Part shown: positions 19,001-33,455 of the stretch, one piece after another | How the letters are laid out: each line of letters begins with the position of its first letter | Numbering within the stretch: position 1 is the stretch's first letter | Assembly: GCA_043769625.1 (NCBI GenBank) | Contig: JAYVJD010000306.1 | Coordinates: 1-36,769, forward strand | Direction of reading: 5' to 3' | Length of the DNA stretch: 36,769 nt | From: Pseudomonadota bacterium | Lineage (GTDB): Bacteria > Pseudomonadota > Gammaproteobacteria > Burkholderiales > JBEEJL01 | The notes under the pieces: model-generated | The model's input: only the letters and a program-made list of their open reading frames with translations | What the model was told of the DNA's origin: nothing | Databases searched by the model: none | Program-made: the position numbers and the translations under genes

Positions 19001-19924
19001 TCACTTCCGTGGATGATGATCGAAGTGAATTTTTTTCAAGCGCTCGCGCGCCACATGGGTATAAATCTGTGTCGTTGTAATGTCCGCGTGACCCAATAAC
19101 ATTTGCACCACGCGCAAATCCGCGCCGTGATTGACCAAATGCGTGGCGAAGGCGTGACGCAAGGTGTGCGGCGATAGAGATTGTTTGATCTCGGCCGTTT
19201 CTGCATGACGTTTGATGATGTGCCAAAACGATTCGCGCGTCATCGCGCCACCGCGTGAGGTGACGAATAATGCGTCGGAAATTTGCCCGTTGAGTATTTC
19301 ACTTCGCGCGGTATCCAGATATTTTTTTATCCAGCTCAGCGCTTCTTCGCCTATCGGTACCAAGCGTTCTTTCGATCCTTTACCCATCACGCGCGCGACG
19401 CCGACGTTGCGATCGACTTGCATCGATTTCAGCGTGACCAACTCCGTCACGCGTAATCCGCTGGCGTAAAGTAATTCCAGCATGGCACGGTCGCGCAGGC
19501 CGAGTGGCGTGGTTACGTCAGGCGCGTTGAGCAGACTCTCGACATCTTTTTCCGTCAAACTTTTCGGCAGCGAGCGCGGCAGTTTGGGGGTGTCGATGTT
19601 CAGCGTCGGGTCGGTTTTGACCAAATTTTCACGCAGAGCGAATTGGTAAAAGCGTTTGAACGACGAGAGTTGGCGGCTAGCCGTAGTGGGTTTGGTTTTC
19701 TTGACGCTGAATTGGTACGCGAGATAGGCCTGCAGGTTTTCTTCCGTCGCGCTTTCCAGATTCGCGTTGCGATTTTTGTTCAACCAGTCAGCAAGTTGAT
19801 TGAGATCGCGGCGATAACTCGTCAGCGTATTTTTCGCCAAGCCGTCTTCCAGCCAGAGCACGTCGTTGAAACGGTCGAGTACCAGATCGGAGGTGCTGGC
19901 TTCAGGCGAAGAGGCTGGCATCAT
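19001..19924 (-). CDS. xerD: Tyrosine site-specific recombinase XerD
   Basis: FNDVLWLEDGLAKNTLTSYRRDL...LLYASGLRVTELV...PHTLRHAFATHLVNHGADLRVVQMLLGHADITTTQIYTHV contains the R..HxxR..Y catalytic set. The start at 19924 (MMPASS) gives a typical ~308 aa. The longest ORF reaches 20014, inside ogt. Confidence 0.9.
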   Translation of the reverse strand: MMPASSPEASTSDLVLDRFNDVLWLEDGLAKNTLTSYRRDLNQLADWLNKNRNANLESATEENLQAYLAYQFSVKKTKPTTASRQLSSFKRFYQFALRENLVKTDPTLNIDTPKLPRSLPKSLTEKDVESLLNAPDVTTPLGLRDRAMLELLYASGLRVTELVTLKSMQVDRNVGVARVMGKGSKERLVPIGEEALSWIKKYLDTARSEILNGQISDALFVTSRGGAMTRESFWHIIKRHAETAEIKQSLSPHTLRHAFATHLVNHGADLRVVQMLLGHADITTTQIYTHVARERLKKIHFDHHPRK

Positions 19925-20408
19925 GCGCTTCGTGATGTAACAACCATTTTTTAATTGATAGTGGGTCGTCTTGCTTGCCGCCCATGAATCCGCCGAGTTG
20001 TCCGTTCGCGGCAATGATGCGATGACAGGGGATCACAATGACGATGGGATTTTTTCCGCAGGCAGTACCAACTGCGCGTGGAGATGAATCAATCCGCGTA
20101 GATAATTCGCCGTAACTCCAAGGCTTGCCCGATGGGATTTTTTGTAGTGCTTCCCACACTTTGATTTGATGCGCGGTGCCAGAAAGTTTGATCGGCAAAT
20201 CGAAATGATATTTCGGGTTGTCGAAATACTGTTGCAGTTGTACGCAAACCAAGTGCGCAACGGAATTTTTTTTCGGTGCAATGATGGCGTCTTTGCTGCT
20301 TAAAAAATTGATATTAATCAAATACTTATCATCTATCGTGCGTATGCCTAACACGCCGAAGGGTGCGCAGATTTTGGCTTGATAGATATTTTCTGATTCG
20401 CTTGTCAT
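19902..20408 (-). CDS. ogt: Methylated-DNA-protein-cysteine methyltransferase
   Basis: Active site IVIPCHRII. VWEALQKIPSGKPWSYGEL and the WLLHHE tail are also typical. Confidence 0.92.
   Translation of the reverse strand: MTSESENIYQAKICAPFGVLGIRTIDDKYLININFLSSKDAIIAPKKNSVAHLVCVQLQQYFDNPKYHFDLPIKLSGTAHQIKVWEALQKIPSGKPWSYGELSTRIDSSPRAVGTACGKNPIVIVIPCHRIIAANGQLGGFMGGKQDDPLSIKKWLLHHEAHDASLFA
20314..20332 (+). repeat. Copy of the AATCAAATACTTAT motif inside the ogt coding region
   Basis: TTAATCAAATACTTATCAT, identical to 6633-6651, with ~40 nt of flanking similarity. On the minus strand it encodes DDKYLINI in the Ogt N-terminal domain. Confidence 0.5.
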
Positions 20409-26493: not shown

Positions 26494-26644
26494 GTTGTGT
26501 GTCCTGAAAAATACTGCGCTAAAAATGACGGTTAGTGATAAAGCTGAACCCCACATTTTACGCTATTAGCCCATATCGGGGCAAGTTAGCTGTGTGAGTC
26601 GTATGAACAGCCGTCGGCGAACGGCCGCGCACCTGAAAGGAATT

Positions 26645-26662
26645 TTAATAACTATTTGATTT
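26645..26662 (-). repeat. Copy of the AATCAAATAGTTAT motif (IHF-consensus-like)
   Basis: The minus strand reads AAATCAAATAGTTATTAA, identical to 10977-10994. It lies just after the yhhQ stop and upstream of rpsP. Confidence 0.6.
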
Positions 26663-26671
26663 TATTGATAT

Positions 26672-27382
26672 TTATTCTTTAAGCGTAAACGGATTAAAGT
26701 CCGTGTCGCGGTCGTAATAGTCTTCTTGCTCCGCGCGTTTAAGCCAATTGACGATTTTATACGTCATTGGCGTGAAGGCGATTTCGACACCGACTTTGGT
26801 AATAAATTGCGCCAACATCACCGTTGGTAATTTGTCGTCGGGAATAATTCCGGTACCGTAAAACGCCAGCGGATAAAATAAAAGTGAATCGACCGCTTCG
26901 CCAAAAATCGTCGAGCCGATGGTGCGGCTCCACAAGTGTTTGCCCGCCGTGAGGATTTTCATTTTCGCCAACACAAACGAATTCACAAACTCGCCGCAAG
27001 CAAAAGCGATGAGCGAAGCGAGAGCAACCCGCCACGCACCACCGAACGCGATTTCGTAAGCTTGCTGATTTTTCCACCACGGCGCGGGCGGCAAACTCAC
27101 CACCACCCAGGCCATAAACGACGCAAACAACAGCGCGGCAAAGCCGGCCCAAATCACCCGACGCGAGCGCGCGTAGCCGTACACCTCGGTGAGAATGTCG
27201 CCGAATACGTACGAAATTGGAAAAAATAACACGCCGGCGCCAAAAGTGATCACGCCGATAATCGGCAAATCCAGCTGCGCACCTTTGGCCGGCCCGATGA
27301 GGTTCGAGCACAGCAACACGACGACAAACGCCGTCATCACTAGATCGAAATATTTATAATTAGCGCGAGGAGGTGAAGTCAT
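26672..27382 (-). CDS. yhhQ: Queuosine-precursor transporter (YhhQ/VUT family)
   Basis: 236 aa, 6 TM. FPISYVFGDILTEVYGY...GEFVNSFVLAKMK...STIFGEAVDSLLFYPLAF is the COG1738/YhhQ pattern. Confidence 0.88.
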   Translation of the reverse strand: MTSPPRANYKYFDLVMTAFVVVLLCSNLIGPAKGAQLDLPIIGVITFGAGVLFFPISYVFGDILTEVYGYARSRRVIWAGFAALLFASFMAWVVVSLPPAPWWKNQQAYEIAFGGAWRVALASLIAFACGEFVNSFVLAKMKILTAGKHLWSRTIGSTIFGEAVDSLLFYPLAFYGTGIIPDDKLPTVMLAQFITKVGVEIAFTPMTYKIVNWLKRAEQEDYYDRDTDFNPFTLKE

Positions 27383-27480
27383 ATTTTTGTGTTGTTGAAA
27401 TGACGTTGAGGTGATGAGTCAGACTGTAACTAGCTCGGAAAATTCGCGGCGGGAAAACCGGTAGGGTGCGCTCGCGGACC

Positions 27481-27512
27481 AAAAAAAAATCCCCTCCCTT
27501 TCAAGGGGAAGG
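27481..27512 (-). terminator. Rho-independent terminator downstream of the methyltransferase gene
   Basis: The minus strand reads CCUUCCCCUU-GAAA-GGGAGGGGA followed by U9. Confidence 0.7.
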
Positions 27513-27595
27513 TTAGGGGTGAGGCAGGGAATTCGGACAGCATGCTGCCCGCCTGTCGAACGGCGTTTCGATGCAGCGAAACGTGCGTCCTGCAA

Positions 27596-27606
27596 GGGGG
27601 GGGGGG
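27596..27606. repeat. Intergenic homopolymer G11
   Basis: Eleven G followed by TGGGTGG, 38 nt downstream of the methyltransferase stop and within a GC-rich palindromic block. Confidence 0.9.
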
Positions 27607-27643
27607 TGGGTGGTCTCTAGTCAGCCGCAAACTAACCCAAAAC

Positions 27644-28192
27644 TTAATTCAAATTCACCGCGCGCAATTCCCATACACCCGCAGGCGGCGCGTTGCGCCA
27701 AATAAAATTCGTTCGCGTCCAGACGAAACCGACGGGGGCAGTAAACGGCTCGCGCGGCTGGTAGGTAAACTGGATCAATTTTCGGATCGGCGATACGCGC
27801 AAAAAAGCGCAAATGCTGGCCACGGTTTCTTGCGTAATGTGGGGCGGCAGCGAACGAAACGGCAGACTCGACACCAGTGCCGTGTTCAGCGGTGCATCGG
27901 TCAAATTATCGATCACTTGCTTCGCCGTATCATTGCGCACATCAATATCGGGAAATTTTTGTTGCAGCTTGCGCGCCAGGCCCGACTCCAGCTCGACCGC
28001 AATCAACGGCACATCAGGATGCGAACCGATTAACGCTTTGGTTACCGAGCCCGTGCCGGCACCTAACTCCACCACCAAGTCAGCCCTATTCGTCGCGCGC
28101 GCCATCGCGTTGGCGAGATACTTCGACGAAGGCGCCAAGCAGCCCATCGTCGCCGGGTTTCTGATCAAAGAAATAAAAAATTGTGCAGACAT
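27644..28192 (-). CDS. Small class I SAM-dependent methyltransferase (COG3963 / phospholipid N-methyltransferase-like)
   Basis: FISLIRNPATMGCLAPSSKYLA (family N-terminal motif). SAM motif I is VVELGAGTGSVTKAL. 182 aa. Confidence 0.75.
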   Translation of the reverse strand: MSAQFFISLIRNPATMGCLAPSSKYLANAMARATNRADLVVELGAGTGSVTKALIGSHPDVPLIAVELESGLARKLQQKFPDIDVRNDTAKQVIDNLTDAPLNTALVSSLPFRSLPPHITQETVASICAFLRVSPIRKLIQFTYQPREPFTAPVGFVWTRTNFIWRNAPPAGVWELRAVNLN

Positions 28193-28359
28193 ATGTCTTT
28201 TCTCTTTCGAGTTTTACGGCAGGAGTAAAAAACATAAAGTCTGGCGGAGTAATCAGACCAGACAAACTAATTATGACGCAATTAATTAGCGTGAGCGATA
28301 GCTAAAGTCAAATTACCATTAAAAAATATGATAATTATAAATAAAAACAAATAGTTATA
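27912..28359. repeat. Direct repeat, copy A: 5' 281 nt of the methyltransferase gene plus its divergent promoter region
   Basis: Aligns with 29672-30109 at a constant offset of 1760 nt through the coding part. See findings for hand-counted identity. Confidence 0.85.
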
Positions 28360-28610
28360 TGTATTATTTATTCGCGACGAAGTGTGCATGTAGCAAGGTA
28401 AAGACGCGACAAAACGAATGGTAGCCACGGCGGCTTCAGGCTGCGCGGCGCAAAACTTGTATTTCCTCATTTGTGAACTATATTTTGATTAAGTACAAAT
28501 ATTATGTTCTCTTGGGAGGCGTTTTTCGGCGACAACCCGAATTTGTATAGCAAGAAATTCCATCAGAGAATTTGTTCGGAAATAATAACGGGGCCAAAGC
28601 GCAGAGATTG

Positions 28611-29258
28611 ATGAATAAAAAATTGCAAAAGCTGTTCGTGTTTTTATTGTGTGTCATTTCCTTTTTACTCCTGATGCATTTTTTCCCCGCCAGCGTTTCC
28701 CACACCATCGCCAATCGTTTTGATCTCAATGGTGAAGCAAACGCCCCCTCATGGTTCTCCACCATCGTGCTGTTTTCCGTCGCGCTGACGGCAATCGCTA
28801 TCTACACAGTAGAGGAATTAGGGGCGGCGCCTGAGCGCCTATGGCCCCGATTTTGGCTCACTTTCGCCGCCGTTTATGTATTCCTCTCGCTTGATGAAGC
28901 CGCACGTATCCACGAAATATTGGACGTCGTCCTGATTAAGTGGGTCCTCATTTATGCGCCGTTTGCCGGGGTATTTTTCATGGCCTGCGTTTACAATTTC
29001 ACCGCCATCAGAAAACAAGACCCGCATCTGCGTTTTTGGATCTTGGGCGGCTTAATCGCCTACGCGGCAGGCGGTCTCGGCGCAGAATCCGTCAGCCACA
29101 TCCTCCGCCCGTTGCCCAATTTTTGGCAGCAAGTCGAATACGTCATCGAAGAAGGCCTGGAAATGATTGGCATGTCGATGGTGCTGATGGGATGTCTGCA
29201 GGAACTACTGCGCGTGTATAAGCTCGCGAATCCACCGAAAGCCGCGCGAGTTAAATAA
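28611..29258 (+). CDS. Multi-pass membrane protein, function unknown
   Basis: About 215 aa from the ATG at 28611 (the ORF track TTG is at 28572). Six predicted helices. No recognisable motif and a weak RBS. Confidence 0.55.
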   Translation: MNKKLQKLFVFLLCVISFLLLMHFFPASVSHTIANRFDLNGEANAPSWFSTIVLFSVALTAIAIYTVEELGAAPERLWPRFWLTFAAVYVFLSLDEAARIHEILDVVLIKWVLIYAPFAGVFFMACVYNFTAIRKQDPHLRFWILGGLIAYAAGGLGAESVSHILRPLPNFWQQVEYVIEEGLEMIGMSMVLMGCLQELLRVYKLANPPKAARVK

Positions 29259-29335
29259 GCGCTTTATTTTGTTTTGAATTTATCTTCATGGGCTGCGCGC
29301 TGTTTTCCTGTATCACAAGAGAATAGGAGATAACC

Positions 29336-29626
29336 ATGAAAAAATTACGCAACATCCATCCCGGCGAAATATTGCTCGAAGAATTTTTAACGCCGATGAG
29401 CCTCAGCCAAAACGCGCTCGCTTGTTCCATCAGTGTTCCGCCTCGTCGTATAAATGAAATTGTGCTCGGCAAACGTAGTGTCAGCGCAGATACGGCCTTG
29501 CGCCTTGCGCGCGTATTCGGTACGAGCGAAGCATTCTGGATGGGATTGCAGGCCGACTACGATCTTGAGTTGGCGCGCGAACAAATAGCGCCGATGTTGC
29601 GTGGGATTGAAAAGATTGCAGCCTGA
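29336..29626 (+). CDS. higA: HigA-family antitoxin (XRE-type HTH)
   Basis: MKKLRNIHPGEILLEEFLTPMSLSQNALACSISVPPRRINEIVLGKRSVSADTALRLARVFGTSEAFWMGLQADYDLE is the canonical HigA/VapI sequence. SD AGGAGA lies 5 nt upstream. Confidence 0.9.
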   Translation: MKKLRNIHPGEILLEEFLTPMSLSQNALACSISVPPRRINEIVLGKRSVSADTALRLARVFGTSEAFWMGLQADYDLELAREQIAPMLRGIEKIAA

Positions 29627-29656
29627 TAAAAAATATTCGAACCTGACCCCTTAATC

Positions 29657-29952
29657 CCCGTGAAGCCATCAATCACTTGCTTCGCCGTGTCATGACGCAC
29701 ATCTATCTCAGGGAATTTTTGTTGTAACTTCTTCGCCAGGCCCGACTCTAACTCCACCGCAATCAAGGGCACATCAGGATGTGAGCCGATCAAAGCCTTA
29801 GTCACCGAACCCGTGCCCGCGCCCAACTCAACCACCAGCTCAGCCCGATCCGTCGCCCGCGCCATAGCATTCGCGAGATACTTGGAAGAAGGCGCCAGAC
29901 AACCCATCGTCGCCGGGTTTCTGATCAAGGAAATAAAAAACTGTGCGGACAT
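29657..29952 (-). pseudogene. Truncated paralogue (5' ~98 codons) of the SAM methyltransferase gene
   Basis: The first 94 aa differ from the 27644-28192 product at only 5 positions. Homology is lost after DTAKQVID(G/N)(F/L)T, and the frame then runs through the region downstream of higA and into the antisense of its 3' end to a stop at 29557. Confidence 0.8.
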
Positions 29953-30109
29953 TAGGTCTTTCAGTTTTGTTGGCGGAGTGAAAATGATGAAGTCTGGTGT
30001 AAGCCAGACTAGGTAACGAATTATGACGTAATTAAATTGATGGCGCGATAGTTAATTGTGAAACAATTTTTTAAAAATGATAATATATTGTATAAAATCA
30101 AATAATTAC
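29672..30109. repeat. Direct repeat, copy B (methyltransferase 5' fragment plus divergent promoter region)
   Basis: Pairs with 27912-28359. Confidence 0.85.
30056..30084 (+). promoter_or_regulatory. Candidate sigma70 promoter for the deaminase gene
   Basis: TTGTGA - 17 nt - GATAAT, about 150 nt upstream of the ATG at 30233, inside repeat copy B. Confidence 0.4.
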
Positions 30110-30232
30110 GAGTTATTGAGTAGATGTTCAGCACGGCATCTACAACACAATAATTAAACTAATTTAACTAAAAACCTAAAATTAATCTAAGGTGTTGTGA
30201 CACAAACAACTCAATAAAATCAGGAGGCAATA

Positions 30233-31798
30233 ATGGCAAAAACTATCCGAAAAAATATCAGTCCAAAAAAATCGATCCAAAAAAACAAAACACCTCTGCT
30301 TGAGCATAATAAAACCCCTGAGCTTTTTTTCGGCTTAATAGCGCCATCCGGGACAGATCTAACACAACCAATAGCCAGTTTAAAAAGTGAACTTCAAAAG
30401 CTCAGATATAAGGTTAAAGAGGTAAATTTAAGTGGCCTTATAACAAGTTTTTTAACAAAAAATACGTCCACTCAAAATGAAAAAGATAGGTTAACAAATT
30501 TAATGAGATATGGCACAGAAATTAGAGAGAAAACTTCAAGAGGAGATGCGATTGCTCTATTAGGAATTTCAGAAATACAACGTTTACGAAATCTTGAAAG
30601 TGAAGATGATATTGGAGTTGCATATATTATTAAGTCGCTAAAACATTCTGAAGAAATAAATACTTTGCGAAAAGTTTATGGCCAAGGATTTTATTCGGTA
30701 TCAGTTTATTCTCCTAGGGGTTCAAGAATTAATGAGCTAGCTAGCCGAATCGAAAAGTCCAAATCCAGCAAGCATGGTTCTCGTTCAGAAGCAGAGGCCC
30801 TAGTAGAAAGAGATGAGTCTGAAAAAGGACATCCATTAGGTCAAAACGTAAAGGATGCTTTTCCGCTAGCTGATTTTTTCCTAGACGTAAGAATAAAGAA
30901 AAAAATTAATGATGAGATAAAGAGATTTATTGAATTAATTTTTTCACATCCCTATCACACGCCTACGAAAGATGAGTATGCAATGTACCATGCAAAATCT
31001 GCGGCTTTACGGTCCGCAGATTTAGGTAGGCAAGTGGGAGCATCAATTACAACAAAAAACTGTGATTTGATTTCAATTGGTTGTAATGATGTTCCTCGCT
31101 CAGGTGGTGGTTTGTACTGGCCTGATGATGAAGAGGACGGTCGAGATTTTCGTAAAGGCAATGATCCTATACATGAACAGAAGGAACAAATTCTTGGCGA
31201 GCTAATAGAGCGTTTACGTGATAATAAATGGTTGTCGAAGCCTTTAAAAGACCAAGCTCCCCAAAATTTATTAAACGAATCATTGGTCGGTAAATATAAA
31301 CATGTATTTAAAGATACTTTGGTAATGAATTTGTTAGAGTTTGGTAGAAGTGTGCATGCAGAAATGGCGGCGTTGATGGATTCAGCAAGAAGAGGTGTTT
31401 CAGTAAAGGGAGCAACGCTATATACAACTACATTCCCATGCCACCTCTGCGCAAAGCATATCATCGCATCAGGTATAGACCGGGTTGTATATATTGAGCC
31501 CTATCCAAAAAGTAGGGCGCTTAATTTATTTGATGATTCAATAAGTGTTGATGGGGCGAAAGACGCATCAAATAAAATTTCTTTTGAACCATTTGTTGGA
31601 GTTGCGCCAAGGCAATATTTGAATCTTTTTGAAGCACCTATTGATAGAAAAGATAATCGAGGAAAAATAATTGATTGGCCTGCGAACGGATTCATTCCCC
31701 GAGTGAAAAGATTAACAGATACTTATATTTTTCTCGAAACTCGAATAATCGCTGAAATTATCCCCAAAATGAAGCTGGTTGCAAAATCTATTGTTTGA
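30233..31798 (+). CDS. Kinase-like / dCMP-deaminase fusion protein: AvcD (DcdV) / anti-phage dCTP-deaminase-type defence protein
   Basis: C-terminal zinc deaminase motifs VHAEMAAL and FPCHLCAKHII, preceded by DEYAMYHAKSAALRSADLGRQVGASI. The N-terminal domain begins with a degenerate P-loop-like ELFFGLIAPSGTDLTQ. 521 aa, strong SD (CAGGAGG), ~35% GC by eye. Confidence 0.8.
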   Translation: MAKTIRKNISPKKSIQKNKTPLLEHNKTPELFFGLIAPSGTDLTQPIASLKSELQKLRYKVKEVNLSGLITSFLTKNTSTQNEKDRLTNLMRYGTEIREKTSRGDAIALLGISEIQRLRNLESEDDIGVAYIIKSLKHSEEINTLRKVYGQGFYSVSVYSPRGSRINELASRIEKSKSSKHGSRSEAEALVERDESEKGHPLGQNVKDAFPLADFFLDVRIKKKINDEIKRFIELIFSHPYHTPTKDEYAMYHAKSAALRSADLGRQVGASITTKNCDLISIGCNDVPRSGGGLYWPDDEEDGRDFRKGNDPIHEQKEQILGELIERLRDNKWLSKPLKDQAPQNLLNESLVGKYKHVFKDTLVMNLLEFGRSVHAEMAALMDSARRGVSVKGATLYTTTFPCHLCAKHIIASGIDRVVYIEPYPKSRALNLFDDSISVDGAKDASNKISFEPFVGVAPRQYLNLFEAPIDRKDNRGKIIDWPANGFIPRVKRLTDTYIFLETRIIAEIIPKMKLVAKSIV

Positions 31799-31879
31799 GT
31801 TAATATAGATGGTGTAATTTGCAATGTATGATTTACTAATAAAATAATTAAATTAACTCTAAATAGTTTGGAGGCAATT

Positions 31880-32062
31880 ATGGCAAAACCAGCGGAGATT
31901 AACTGGGATGACCAGATAAAACAGGCTCAAGATGAAATTAAATCTTGGTCTAAGTCGGTACAATTAAATACCCGGCTTGATAAAGGCTTTAGTGCCGTAG
32001 CTGAGCCGATTCAAACAAGTTCAAAGTTAGTAGCCAAAAAGACATCGAATCAACGTGATTAA
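31880..32062 (+). CDS. Small hypothetical protein (60 aa) downstream of the deaminase
   Basis: MAKPAEINWDDQIKQAQDEIKSWSKSV... Its SD and start context, GGAGGCAATTATGGCAAAA, matches that of the deaminase gene at 18 of 19 nt. Same strand and same AT-rich islet. Confidence 0.5.
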   Translation: MAKPAEINWDDQIKQAQDEIKSWSKSVQLNTRLDKGFSAVAEPIQTSSKLVAKKTSNQRD

Positions 32063-32105
32063 TTTCAAGATAATTTGAGTCTATGGGATGGCTCATTTAT
32101 TTGTG

Positions 32106-33455
32106 CTATCCCACCCCCGGAAATCTCCCCTTCATCCCGCGCATCATTTTTGCCATGCCGCCTTTTTGCATGCTCTTCATCATTTTCTGCATTTGTTCGA
32201 ATTGATTTAACAGGCGATTCACTTCCTGTACTTGCACGCCTGCGCCGGCGGCGATGCGGCGTTTGCGTGTGGCTTTTATTAGTGCGGGGAATTGGCGTTC
32301 TTGTTTGGTCATGGAGTTGATGATGCCTTCGGTGCGGCCTAGCGCTTTGTCATCGACTTGCGGATTGCCTTGGGCGATTTTGCCCATTTGCGCGGGGAGT
32401 TTGTCCATGAGAGAACTTAAGCCGCCCATTTTTTTCATTTGTTGTAATTGGCTTTTGAAATCTTCGAGGTCGAAGTCTTTGCCTTTTTTCATTTTCAGCG
32501 CGAGCTTTTCGGCTTCGGCTTTGTCGATGCCTTGATGCGCTTGTTCGATCAGCGATAACACGTCGCCCATGCCGAGGATGCGCGAGGCCATGCGCTCGGG
32601 GTGGAAGGCTTCGAGGCCGGTGAGTTTTTCGCCGACGCCGATAAATTTGATCGGCTTTTGCGTGACGTGTCGCACTGATAGCGCCGCGCCGCCACGCGAA
32701 TCGCCATCGAGTTTGGTGAGGATGATGCCGGTCAGCGGCAACGCGTCACCGAAAGCTTTGGCGACATTCACTGCGTCCTGGCCTTGCATCGCATCGACGA
32801 CGAACAGGGTTTCGATGGGTTGGAGCGATGAATGTAACTGTTTGATTTCATTCATCATTTCTTCATCTATCGCGAGGCGTCCGGCGGTATCGACGATGAG
32901 CACATCATGAAAATGTTTTTTCGCGTAGTCCTGCGCGGCGAGCGCGATGTCGTTCGGTTTTTGTGCTTTGTCCGACGCGAAAAAATCCACGTCGAGTTGT
33001 TTGGCTAGCAGTTTTAATTGTTCGATGGCGGCGGGGCGATACACGTCGCAACTCACTAACAATACTTTTTTCTTTTGCTCTTTTAATAATTTCGCCAGCT
33101 TGCCGCTGCTGGTGGTTTTGCCCGATCCTTGCAAGCCGGCCATGAGAATAATCGCGGGCGGCACGGTGGCGAGGTTGATGCCTTCGCTCGTGCCGCCCAT
33201 GAGTTCGATCAACTCGCGATGCACCACGCCGACCAACTCTTGTCCGGGTGACAGGCTTTGCAACACGTCGATGCCGAGGGCTTTTTCTTTCACGCGCGCG
33301 ATGAAATCTTTGACCACCGGCAGGGCGACGTCGGCTTCGAGCAGCGCCATGCGCACTTCGCGCATCGCGTCTGAGATATTGTCTTCGGTCAGGCGCGATT
33401 GTCCGCGCAAGGTTTTGATTACGCCGCCGAGGCGCTGGGTTAAATTCTCAAACAT
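32106..33455 (-). CDS. ffh: Signal recognition particle protein Ffh
   Basis: MFENLTQRLGGVIKTLRG...GLQGSGKTTSSGKLA...DTAGRL... plus a Met-rich M domain (MQKMMKSMQKGGMAKMMRGM). Confidence 0.98.
   Translation of the reverse strand: MFENLTQRLGGVIKTLRGQSRLTEDNISDAMREVRMALLEADVALPVVKDFIARVKEKALGIDVLQSLSPGQELVGVVHRELIELMGGTSEGINLATVPPAIILMAGLQGSGKTTSSGKLAKLLKEQKKKVLLVSCDVYRPAAIEQLKLLAKQLDVDFFASDKAQKPNDIALAAQDYAKKHFHDVLIVDTAGRLAIDEEMMNEIKQLHSSLQPIETLFVVDAMQGQDAVNVAKAFGDALPLTGIILTKLDGDSRGGAALSVRHVTQKPIKFIGVGEKLTGLEAFHPERMASRILGMGDVLSLIEQAHQGIDKAEAEKLALKMKKGKDFDLEDFKSQLQQMKKMGGLSSLMDKLPAQMGKIAQGNPQVDDKALGRTEGIINSMTKQERQFPALIKATRKRRIAAGAGVQVQEVNRLLNQFEQMQKMMKSMQKGGMAKMMRGMKGRFPGVG

Follow-up and report, generated by a model that had tools for sequence, protein, structure and literature searches.

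A diverged repeat of a methyltransferase 5' end as a probable scar of inter-lineage recombination beside ffh in an uncultured Burkholderiales genus

The DNA considered here is the 36,769-nt contig JAYVJD010000306.1 (C306 of genome G000; hereafter 'the window', meaning the whole stretch), which belongs to a 2.5-Mb metagenome-assembled genome (MAG) of 408 contigs that is 80% complete and represents an uncultured soil and freshwater genus of Burkholderiales known only from MAGs. Read along the minus strand, the region of interest begins with ffh and continues with a 60-aa open reading frame (ORF) and a dCTP deaminase gene on the opposite strand, a truncated copy of a methyltransferase gene (B'), the higA and membrane-protein genes, again on the opposite strand, an intact methyltransferase gene (A), yhhQ, and the block rpsP-rimM-trmD-rplS. 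The two methyltransferase copies, each with its leader, form a diverged direct repeat, and from the comparisons set out below we hold with high confidence that this repeat marks a scar of recombination between lineages. The comparison set comprises 10 related loci, which come from JGI and Logan contigs and from five congeneric species; L032 is the locus of genome G001, L018 that of G002, L019 that of G004 (G004:C296) and L047 that of G003 (G003:C67). A metagenome-contig search for related loci found no relative.

The two copies, their ancestry and the join

A repeat search of the window returned one direct-repeat family, 27908-28207 and 29668-29967, with a spacing of 1760 nt and 83% identity, together with an additional piece at 28265-28305 and 30015-30055 whose spacing is 1750 nt; in a MAFFT alignment the similarity of the two copies continues to ~165 nt upstream of the ATG. 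Both methods thereby bear out the diverged repeat of ~440 bp, offset by 1760 nt, that had been noticed in an earlier, sequence-only reading of this DNA. Copy A (27899..28357, minus strand) consists of codons 1-98 of the intact gene (27899-28192) and ~165 nt of leader and promoter, and ends in a 20-nt motif at 28338-28357. Copy B' (29660..30108, minus strand) consists of a leader at 29953-30108, with the same motif at 30089-30108, and codons 1-98 of a second allele (29660-29952).

The intact gene (27644..28192, minus strand) encodes a 182-aa protein that we place among the small class I S-adenosylmethionine (SAM) methyltransferases of the PmtA/OlsG-like group. It scores 71 bits against the NCBIfam PmtA profile (cut-off 250) and 58 bits against the ornithine-lipid methyltransferase OlsG (cut-off 350), its match to Pfam Methyltransf_25 is weak, and its relatives, 84-95% identical, are named phospholipid N-methyltransferase in their source records. 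The repeated gene is, by these profile scores, related to the PmtA and OlsG families at a level below their equivalog cut-offs. Copy B' breaks off after residue 98, at roughly half the length of the intact 182-aa product; its open frame then runs on through 33 unrelated codons antisense to higA to a stop at 29557, and it cannot give a functional methyltransferase.

Over codons 1-95 the copies differ at 45 of 285 nt (84.2% identity; 83.0% over the first 294 nt), and these differences fall 8/1/36 on the three codon positions. At least 36 of 45 at third positions would have a probability of 2e-10 under an even spread. Only five amino acids differ, all conservatively (N35D, D38E, R74K, D82E, N87H), and the NG86 method gives a nonsynonymous divergence (dN) of 0.031 against a synonymous divergence (dS) of 1.0, a ratio of 0.03. 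The hand alignment behind the sequence-only reading, with its ~84% identity, mostly synonymous differences and the same five replacements, is therefore reproduced, and the dN/dS comparison that it had proposed as a check gives the strong synonymous bias it expected. The longest exact run common to A and B' is 26 nt, and excision between the copies is unlikely for that reason.

The two alleles have different nearest relatives. In the first 294 nt the best match of A is L040 (86.1%) and that of B' is L032 (87.1%); a tree of leader and coding sequence (458 columns) likewise groups A with L040 (92/90) and B' with L032 (85/89), and an approximately unbiased (AU) test on the same columns rejects a clade of A and B' (p=0.013). 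Synonymous divergence follows the same pattern, with dS of 0.47 for B' and L032, 0.68 for A and L040, about 0.86-0.90 for A and L032, and 1.04 for A and B', and B' and L032 have an 8-nt deletion in the leader in common. The changes private to B' number 15 and are distributed 2/1/12 over codon positions (p=3e-4 versus an even spread), as in intact genes. Since they are mostly at third positions, B' was under selection at the protein level for nearly all of its separate history, and its truncation is recent. By this evidence the duplicated pieces derive from different lineages, which agrees with the earlier proposal that both copies evolved as functional genes in different lineages before B' was truncated, and that a duplication in place followed by decay is disfavoured.

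The truncation point is sharply defined. At 29659..29660 codon 98 of B' abuts the 3' flank of higA in what we take to be an illegitimate join, with 0-2 nt of possible microhomology and no filler. On one side the methyltransferase homology of the relatives extends down to 29660; on the other, homology to the 3' flank of higA is found in L039 for 20 nt and in L043 to ~29659 (ending between 29646 and 29659), and the two sides are unrelated in sequence. Thirteen nucleotides at the join were considered as filler and rejected, L043 assigning them to the higA flank. The abrupt end of homology had been placed at ~29657, about 30 nt after the higA stop; the abruptness stands, and the position is refined to 29660, 33 nt after that stop. 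A Logan contig (L041, run SRR22198278, 3461 nt) is 100% identical to 28121-31581 and so crosses B' from end to end; it counts as an independent assembly, perhaps of the same reads, but not as independent data. Since the join unites unrelated sequences, and the longest exact run of A and B' is so short, it is not the product that an assembler would make from shared k-mers. The suggestion that the repeat is the scar of an exchange by recombination within the methyltransferase gene is thus supported, with the join at codon 98.

The slot between ffh and the methyltransferase leader

All 10 related loci have ffh on one side and, on the other, a leader of ~165 nt followed by a single methyltransferase gene (none in G003). 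Two methyltransferase copies occur in 0/10. What lies between these borders varies, with seven different cargo states and one near-empty site, and the interval from ffh to the leader is a small slot with changing contents, of the type called core defence hotspots. These are the features that the sequence-only reading had suggested looking for in relatives: one methyltransferase gene or none next to ffh, a near-empty site in G004, varied cargo, and no shared two-copy state. Its view that the repeat brackets a cargo module holds in part: cargo does vary among relatives, but in the interval bounded by ffh and the leader instead of the one that the two copies enclose.

At the near-empty site, G004 (L019), there is nothing but a broken higA and a further higA 3' remnant. 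In G002 (L018) the slot carries an AAA_21/HEC-01-like ATPase, a mad4-like protein and higA; in L032, AbiEi/AbiEii; in L039, a 529-aa lipoprotein and higA; in L040 and G005, a lipoprotein of the L039 type without higA; in L042, an unassigned 194-aa protein and a membrane protein; and in L043-L046, higA, a dCTP deaminase 79% identical to that of the window, and the 60-aa ORF. G003 (L047) has an Ank/SUKH-1 protein and a complete higB-higA pair, and there the methyltransferase coding sequence is gone and the leader kept. The large genes beside the methyltransferase in L039 and L040 had been entertained as deaminases and were rejected, being lipoprotein genes; it follows that no sampled locus is parental to the B arrangement. 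The Ank and SUKH-1 (SMI1/KNR4) protein of G003, of 581 aa (L047 649-2394), stands beside a complete HigBA; SUKH domains are typical of immunity proteins.

In the window the left border of the slot is the conserved ffh (32106..33455, minus strand; dS to L032 0.35), which is conserved at ~92% of nucleotides and displays no mosaic when identity is plotted in sliding windows along it. Next to it is an AT-rich defence cassette (30233..32062, plus strand) of 29-41% GC against ~53% in the flanks, made up of the deaminase gene (30233-31798) and the conserved 60-aa ORF (31880-32062). By curated profile match 30233-31798 is assigned as an anti-phage dCTP deaminase (NCBIfam NF041025, 466.5 bits, cut-off 400; PADLOC dCTPase, 2.7e-167). 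The 60-aa ORF also lies behind the 79% identical deaminase of the other lineage (L043:7694-7876), and in the window the ORF and the deaminase have a common ribosome-binding and start context (repeat D3, 30208-30241 and 31855-31888).

Between B' and A lie two genes on the plus strand. One (29336..29626) encodes a 96-aa HigA-type antitoxin or XRE regulator (TIGR02607, 106 bits, cut-off 47.7), with no higB anywhere in the 36,769 nt; higA is divergent from the methyltransferase also in G002, G003, G004, L039 and L043, and is a frequent resident neighbour at the slot. The other (28572..29258) encodes a membrane protein of unassigned family, whose length is 228 aa if a TTG start is used and 194 aa with the start called at 28674; it has ~50 relatives and no Pfam match. 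A homologue 81% identical adjoins the methyltransferase leader in L042 (L042:555-1208), there without higA. The membrane-protein gene of the window occupies the position that higB (PF05015, 93 aa, overlapping higA) has in the HigBA pair of G003 (L047:2460-3058).

G004 offers a further remnant. Directly after the ffh stop (L019 1246-1364) lies a diverged higA 3' end, with 41 residues in frame and a stop, which is ~71% identical in nucleotides to the other higA copy of that site; the main higA there has a rearranged 3' end. Judged from its sequence, this remnant is a second recombination scar at the slot, in another species, so that scars of this sort are recurrent there. Contigs end in or just after ffh in three of the five genus MAGs (L021, G001:C40; L022, G005:C33; L025/L026, G003), which fits a strain-variable site that is hard to assemble.

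No integrase, transposase or att core was found in the slot. The sequence-only reading had seen no integrase or transposase in the window at all, which holds for the slot but not for the whole stretch: a Xer-type tyrosine recombinase is encoded at 19001-20014, ~8 kb from the repeat and beside an MGMT-like gene. The same order is found in L032 and L039, and this recombinase is a syntenic core gene with no link to the repeat or to an island.

The methyltransferase leader (28193-28300 and 29953-30055, minus strand) is conserved across all lineages, being present in L018, L019, L032, L039, L040, L042, L043 and L047:3145-3295, the last of these the G003 locus from which the methyltransferase coding sequence has been deleted. 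It is laid out as a block CTATCGCGCC..TTAATTGCGTCATAATT followed, 45-75 nt before the ATG, by a hairpin (AGTCTGG..CCAGACT) that has a T-run. Its stem is altered on both sides in A and in L042, and the leader of B' is intact, including hairpin and T-run. A search of 27400-32200 against Rfam at E up to 1 returned nothing, so by this search the leaders contain neither a known riboswitch nor an AvcI-like family. For the leader of B' a role like that of AvcI was considered and is not claimed; the AvcID paper (PMC10511110) does not settle the position and strand of avcI. Promoter-like hexamers at 30056-30084 point towards the deaminase, and this resident divergent promoter region may still serve it; transcripts from the B' promoter could possibly run antisense into higA.

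Resident and imported sequence

Which of the two copies is the newcomer must be judged from the flanks. In a tree of the rpsP-rimM-trmD-rplS block this genome is sister to L032 (100/99), with a dS of 0.29-0.38 between them. L032 being the closest relative in the flanks, and the dS of B' to it being 0.47, B' behaves as the orthologous allele. The sequence around A is of another character. Downstream of A, the spacer to yhhQ (27383-27643, minus strand), with a G11 tract and palindromes, aligns with no relative: over 264 nt it is ~52% identical to all of them, and the relatives' own spacers are 59-81% identical among themselves. Beyond it lies a gene for a YhhQ-type queuosine-precursor transporter (26672-27382, minus strand; Vut_1, 2e-51, and a TIGR00697 match). 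An SMR (Multi_Drug_Res) gene stands between yhhQ and rpsP in L018, L032, L039, L043 and L047 and is absent here alone. The probable other end of the unusual block falls at 26565..26671, where ~85 nt are unique to this genome and include the 20-nt motif (26649-26668) and a GC-rich hairpin; identity to L032 restarts at the rpsP promoter (~26587), the first 25 nt there resembling another lineage.

Because A, its yhhQ spacer and the missing SMR gene match no relative, we read B' as the resident. It is most likely that B' is a resident remnant, with moderate confidence in the direction, and that ~3.1 kb (~26588-29659: higA, the membrane gene, leader A, methyltransferase A and yhhQ) were imported from an unsampled congener. 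That B' is the scar of one-ended homologous plus illegitimate recombination, with B' resident and the A block imported, has in our estimate a probability of about 0.65. The ancestral order would have been ffh, the 60-aa ORF, the deaminase, the leader, methyltransferase B, yhhQ, the SMR gene and rpsP. A linear fragment of ~3.1 kb from a congener, carrying higA, the membrane gene, its own leader, methyltransferase A and yhhQ, would have entered by transformation or transduction and been anchored by homology at the rpsP-promoter side, and its free end would have been joined illegitimately at codon 98 of the resident methyltransferase, as in homology-facilitated illegitimate recombination. Such an event would have put the imported sequence in the place of methyltransferase B codons 99-182, the SMR gene and the resident yhhQ; the resident leader with its first 98 codons would have been left behind, with the deaminase on one side and the incoming higA on the other. 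We infer its direction, its homologous anchor and its route of entry; the block has one end in sequence common to all lineages, the rpsP promoter, and the other at a join without homology, which is the signature of homology-facilitated illegitimate recombination.

A number of observations weigh against this account. On the 294 coding nucleotides alone the AU test does not reject a clade of A and B' (p=0.108), and the node joining B' to L032 has support of just 85/89. In no sampled relative does the deaminase stand directly divergent from a full-length methyltransferase of the B type, nor does any of them have a block of higA, membrane gene and methyltransferase A; all compared sequences are, moreover, metagenome assemblies. 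ComEC and DprA are present in this genome, but also in most of the control genomes, and the loss of the SMR gene could be an independent deletion. The foreign origin of yhhQ is not demonstrable. Its dS (0.87, against ~0.3 for trmD and rplS) was considered as a sign of such an origin and found not to support it, yhhQ evolving ~2.4x faster than the rps block in the undisturbed pair L018-L043 too, and an AU test on yhhQ does not reject a clade of the window and L032 (p=0.41). With dS and the AU test both uninformative, the inclusion of yhhQ in the block comes down to the unalignable spacer and the missing SMR gene.

The transfer may instead have run in the opposite direction, a serious if unlikely alternative in which higA, the membrane gene, methyltransferase A and yhhQ are resident and an import anchored in ffh brought the 60-aa ORF, the deaminase, leader B and 98 codons. 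The join would then be intergenic on the higA side and no resident gene need have been broken, the low GC of the deaminase cassette would mark it as foreign, the gain of a defence gene would be of obvious selective benefit, and ffh, at ~92% of nucleotides, is conserved enough to serve as anchor. Against this, the allele nearest to B' is that of L032, which is the closest relative in both flanks, and the parts unlike every relative are A, the yhhQ spacer and the missing SMR gene; the deaminase cassette is found at the slot in the L043 lineage too, and so need not be new here.

The 20-nt motif TAACTATTTGATTWTATTRA invites a different emphasis. It has 11 copies in the window (0.01 expected), among them 26649-26668, 28338-28357 and 30089-30108, and 434 copies at <=3 mismatches in the 2.5-Mb genome, against 3 for the reversed control. 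At <=2 mismatches each of six genus genomes has 254-329 copies, on both strands, and genomes of 25 other families of the order have 0-2. Both repeat copies have it at their distal end, and in most related loci it lies at ~-157 to -176 of the methyltransferase; read as its reverse complement, it agrees with the IHF consensus WATCAANNNNTTR. Candidate roles for the motif are those of a DNA-uptake sequence, an IHF site or a repetitive extragenic palindromic (REP)-like element. It is tempting to suppose that it guides uptake or recombination and so drives the exchange of cassettes among congeners, B' being a fossil of this traffic, and further that the B' promoter has been kept by selection for the deaminase or for an antisense effect on higA; we regard this as a long shot.

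A tandem duplication in place, of a 1760-nt unit holding the methyltransferase 5' part, the leader, the membrane gene and higA, with later deletion and divergence, would account for the form of the join, which is exactly that of a tandem junction with a period of 1760 nt. It is nevertheless very improbable: by the AU test (p=0.013) the copies are not each other's closest relatives, a dead copy should have changed evenly over codon positions and B' has not (2/1/12), and a dS of 1.0 is comparable to the distances between species of the genus. A later allelic replacement would also be required, which amounts to the account preferred here with an extra step.

A further rival is a site-specific integrative element that inserted at codon 98 with a replacement 5' end and displaced the original as B'. 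The layout is like that of icd, e14 and icdC, where differences are likewise mostly synonymous (PMC13626634), but neither an integrase nor an excisionase or transposase gene lies in the 1.76 kb between the copies, which holds just the membrane-protein gene and higA. Positions 27899 and 29660 lack an identical core, the copies differing in codons 96-98; the last shared run (17 nt) stops 12 nt before the join, and codons of the B' family continue beyond it. Nor does affinity switch at codon 98, A being 86.1% identical to L040 in the 5' part and 85.7% in the 3' part, and the relatives have no such element; this reading is highly improbable. An assembly chimera of two co-occurring strains is suggested by the 408-contig, 80% complete MAG and by the contigs of two relatives that break right after ffh, but is barely credible, as a chimera would join at shared sequence, and here unrelated sequences are joined, A and B' share no exact run above 26 nt, and the Logan contig from SRR22198278 crosses both ends of B' in 3461 nt at 100%.

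Known systems and significance

Homology-facilitated illegitimate recombination was proposed for the displaced effector-immunity modules in clusters for type VI secretion (T6SS) of Vibrio cholerae and for orphan Rhs/CDI 3' ends (Kirchberger et al. 2017, PMC5361080; for such recombination itself, de Vries & Wackernagel 2002 and Prudhomme et al. 2002, as they are cited in PMC5361080). As in those modules, an anchor in a conserved flank would be combined here with another end joined without homology, as far as can be judged from the sequence; the old locus would have been partly displaced, gene remnants of a different lineage lie beside the module, and genes of mobile elements are absent. In place of a toxin 3' end or an immunity gene, however, what has been left behind here is a 5' end with its promoter, from a methyltransferase of housekeeping type, and unlike the T6SS arrays it represents a single event and no array.

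The slot itself resembles the core defence hotspots cDHS1 and cDHS2 of Pseudomonas aeruginosa, for which exchange via flanking homology is proposed (Johnson et al. 2023, PMC10250203), in its fixed core flanks (here ffh and the leader), its varied defence cargo and, mostly, the lack of a mobility gene. It differs in being much smaller (0.3-2.6 kb of cargo), in having several states with non-defence cargo (the lipoprotein and the unassigned 194-aa protein), and in preserving a physical scar of exchange. The icd, e14 and icdC arrangement of Escherichia coli K-12 (Hill et al. 1989, as cited in PMC13626634) is, to the extent that the citing paper describes it, alike in that an intact gene and a homologous terminal fragment stand around an insert and differ mostly by synonymous or conservative changes. 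By the same account e14 is a prophage with an integrase and an att core that duplicates a 3' end, whereas here there is neither, it is the 5' end that is present twice, and the copies are separated by just two small genes.

Defence genes sit in exchangeable slots between core genes, and their exchange is usually traceless, so that its mechanism is mostly guessed. As a recombination scar the repeat is a clear case of a kind already known, and no new mechanism is revealed. Its value is that one exchange appears to have left a datable scar, the stranded front end of a gene, of distinguishable ancestry and joined at a single base position, which would make it a concrete natural instance, between species of an uncultured genus, of recombination that was homologous at one end and illegitimate at the other. 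The interval between ffh and the leader, with the turnover of cargo seen among its relatives, can be mined for new defence or toxin-antitoxin cargo.

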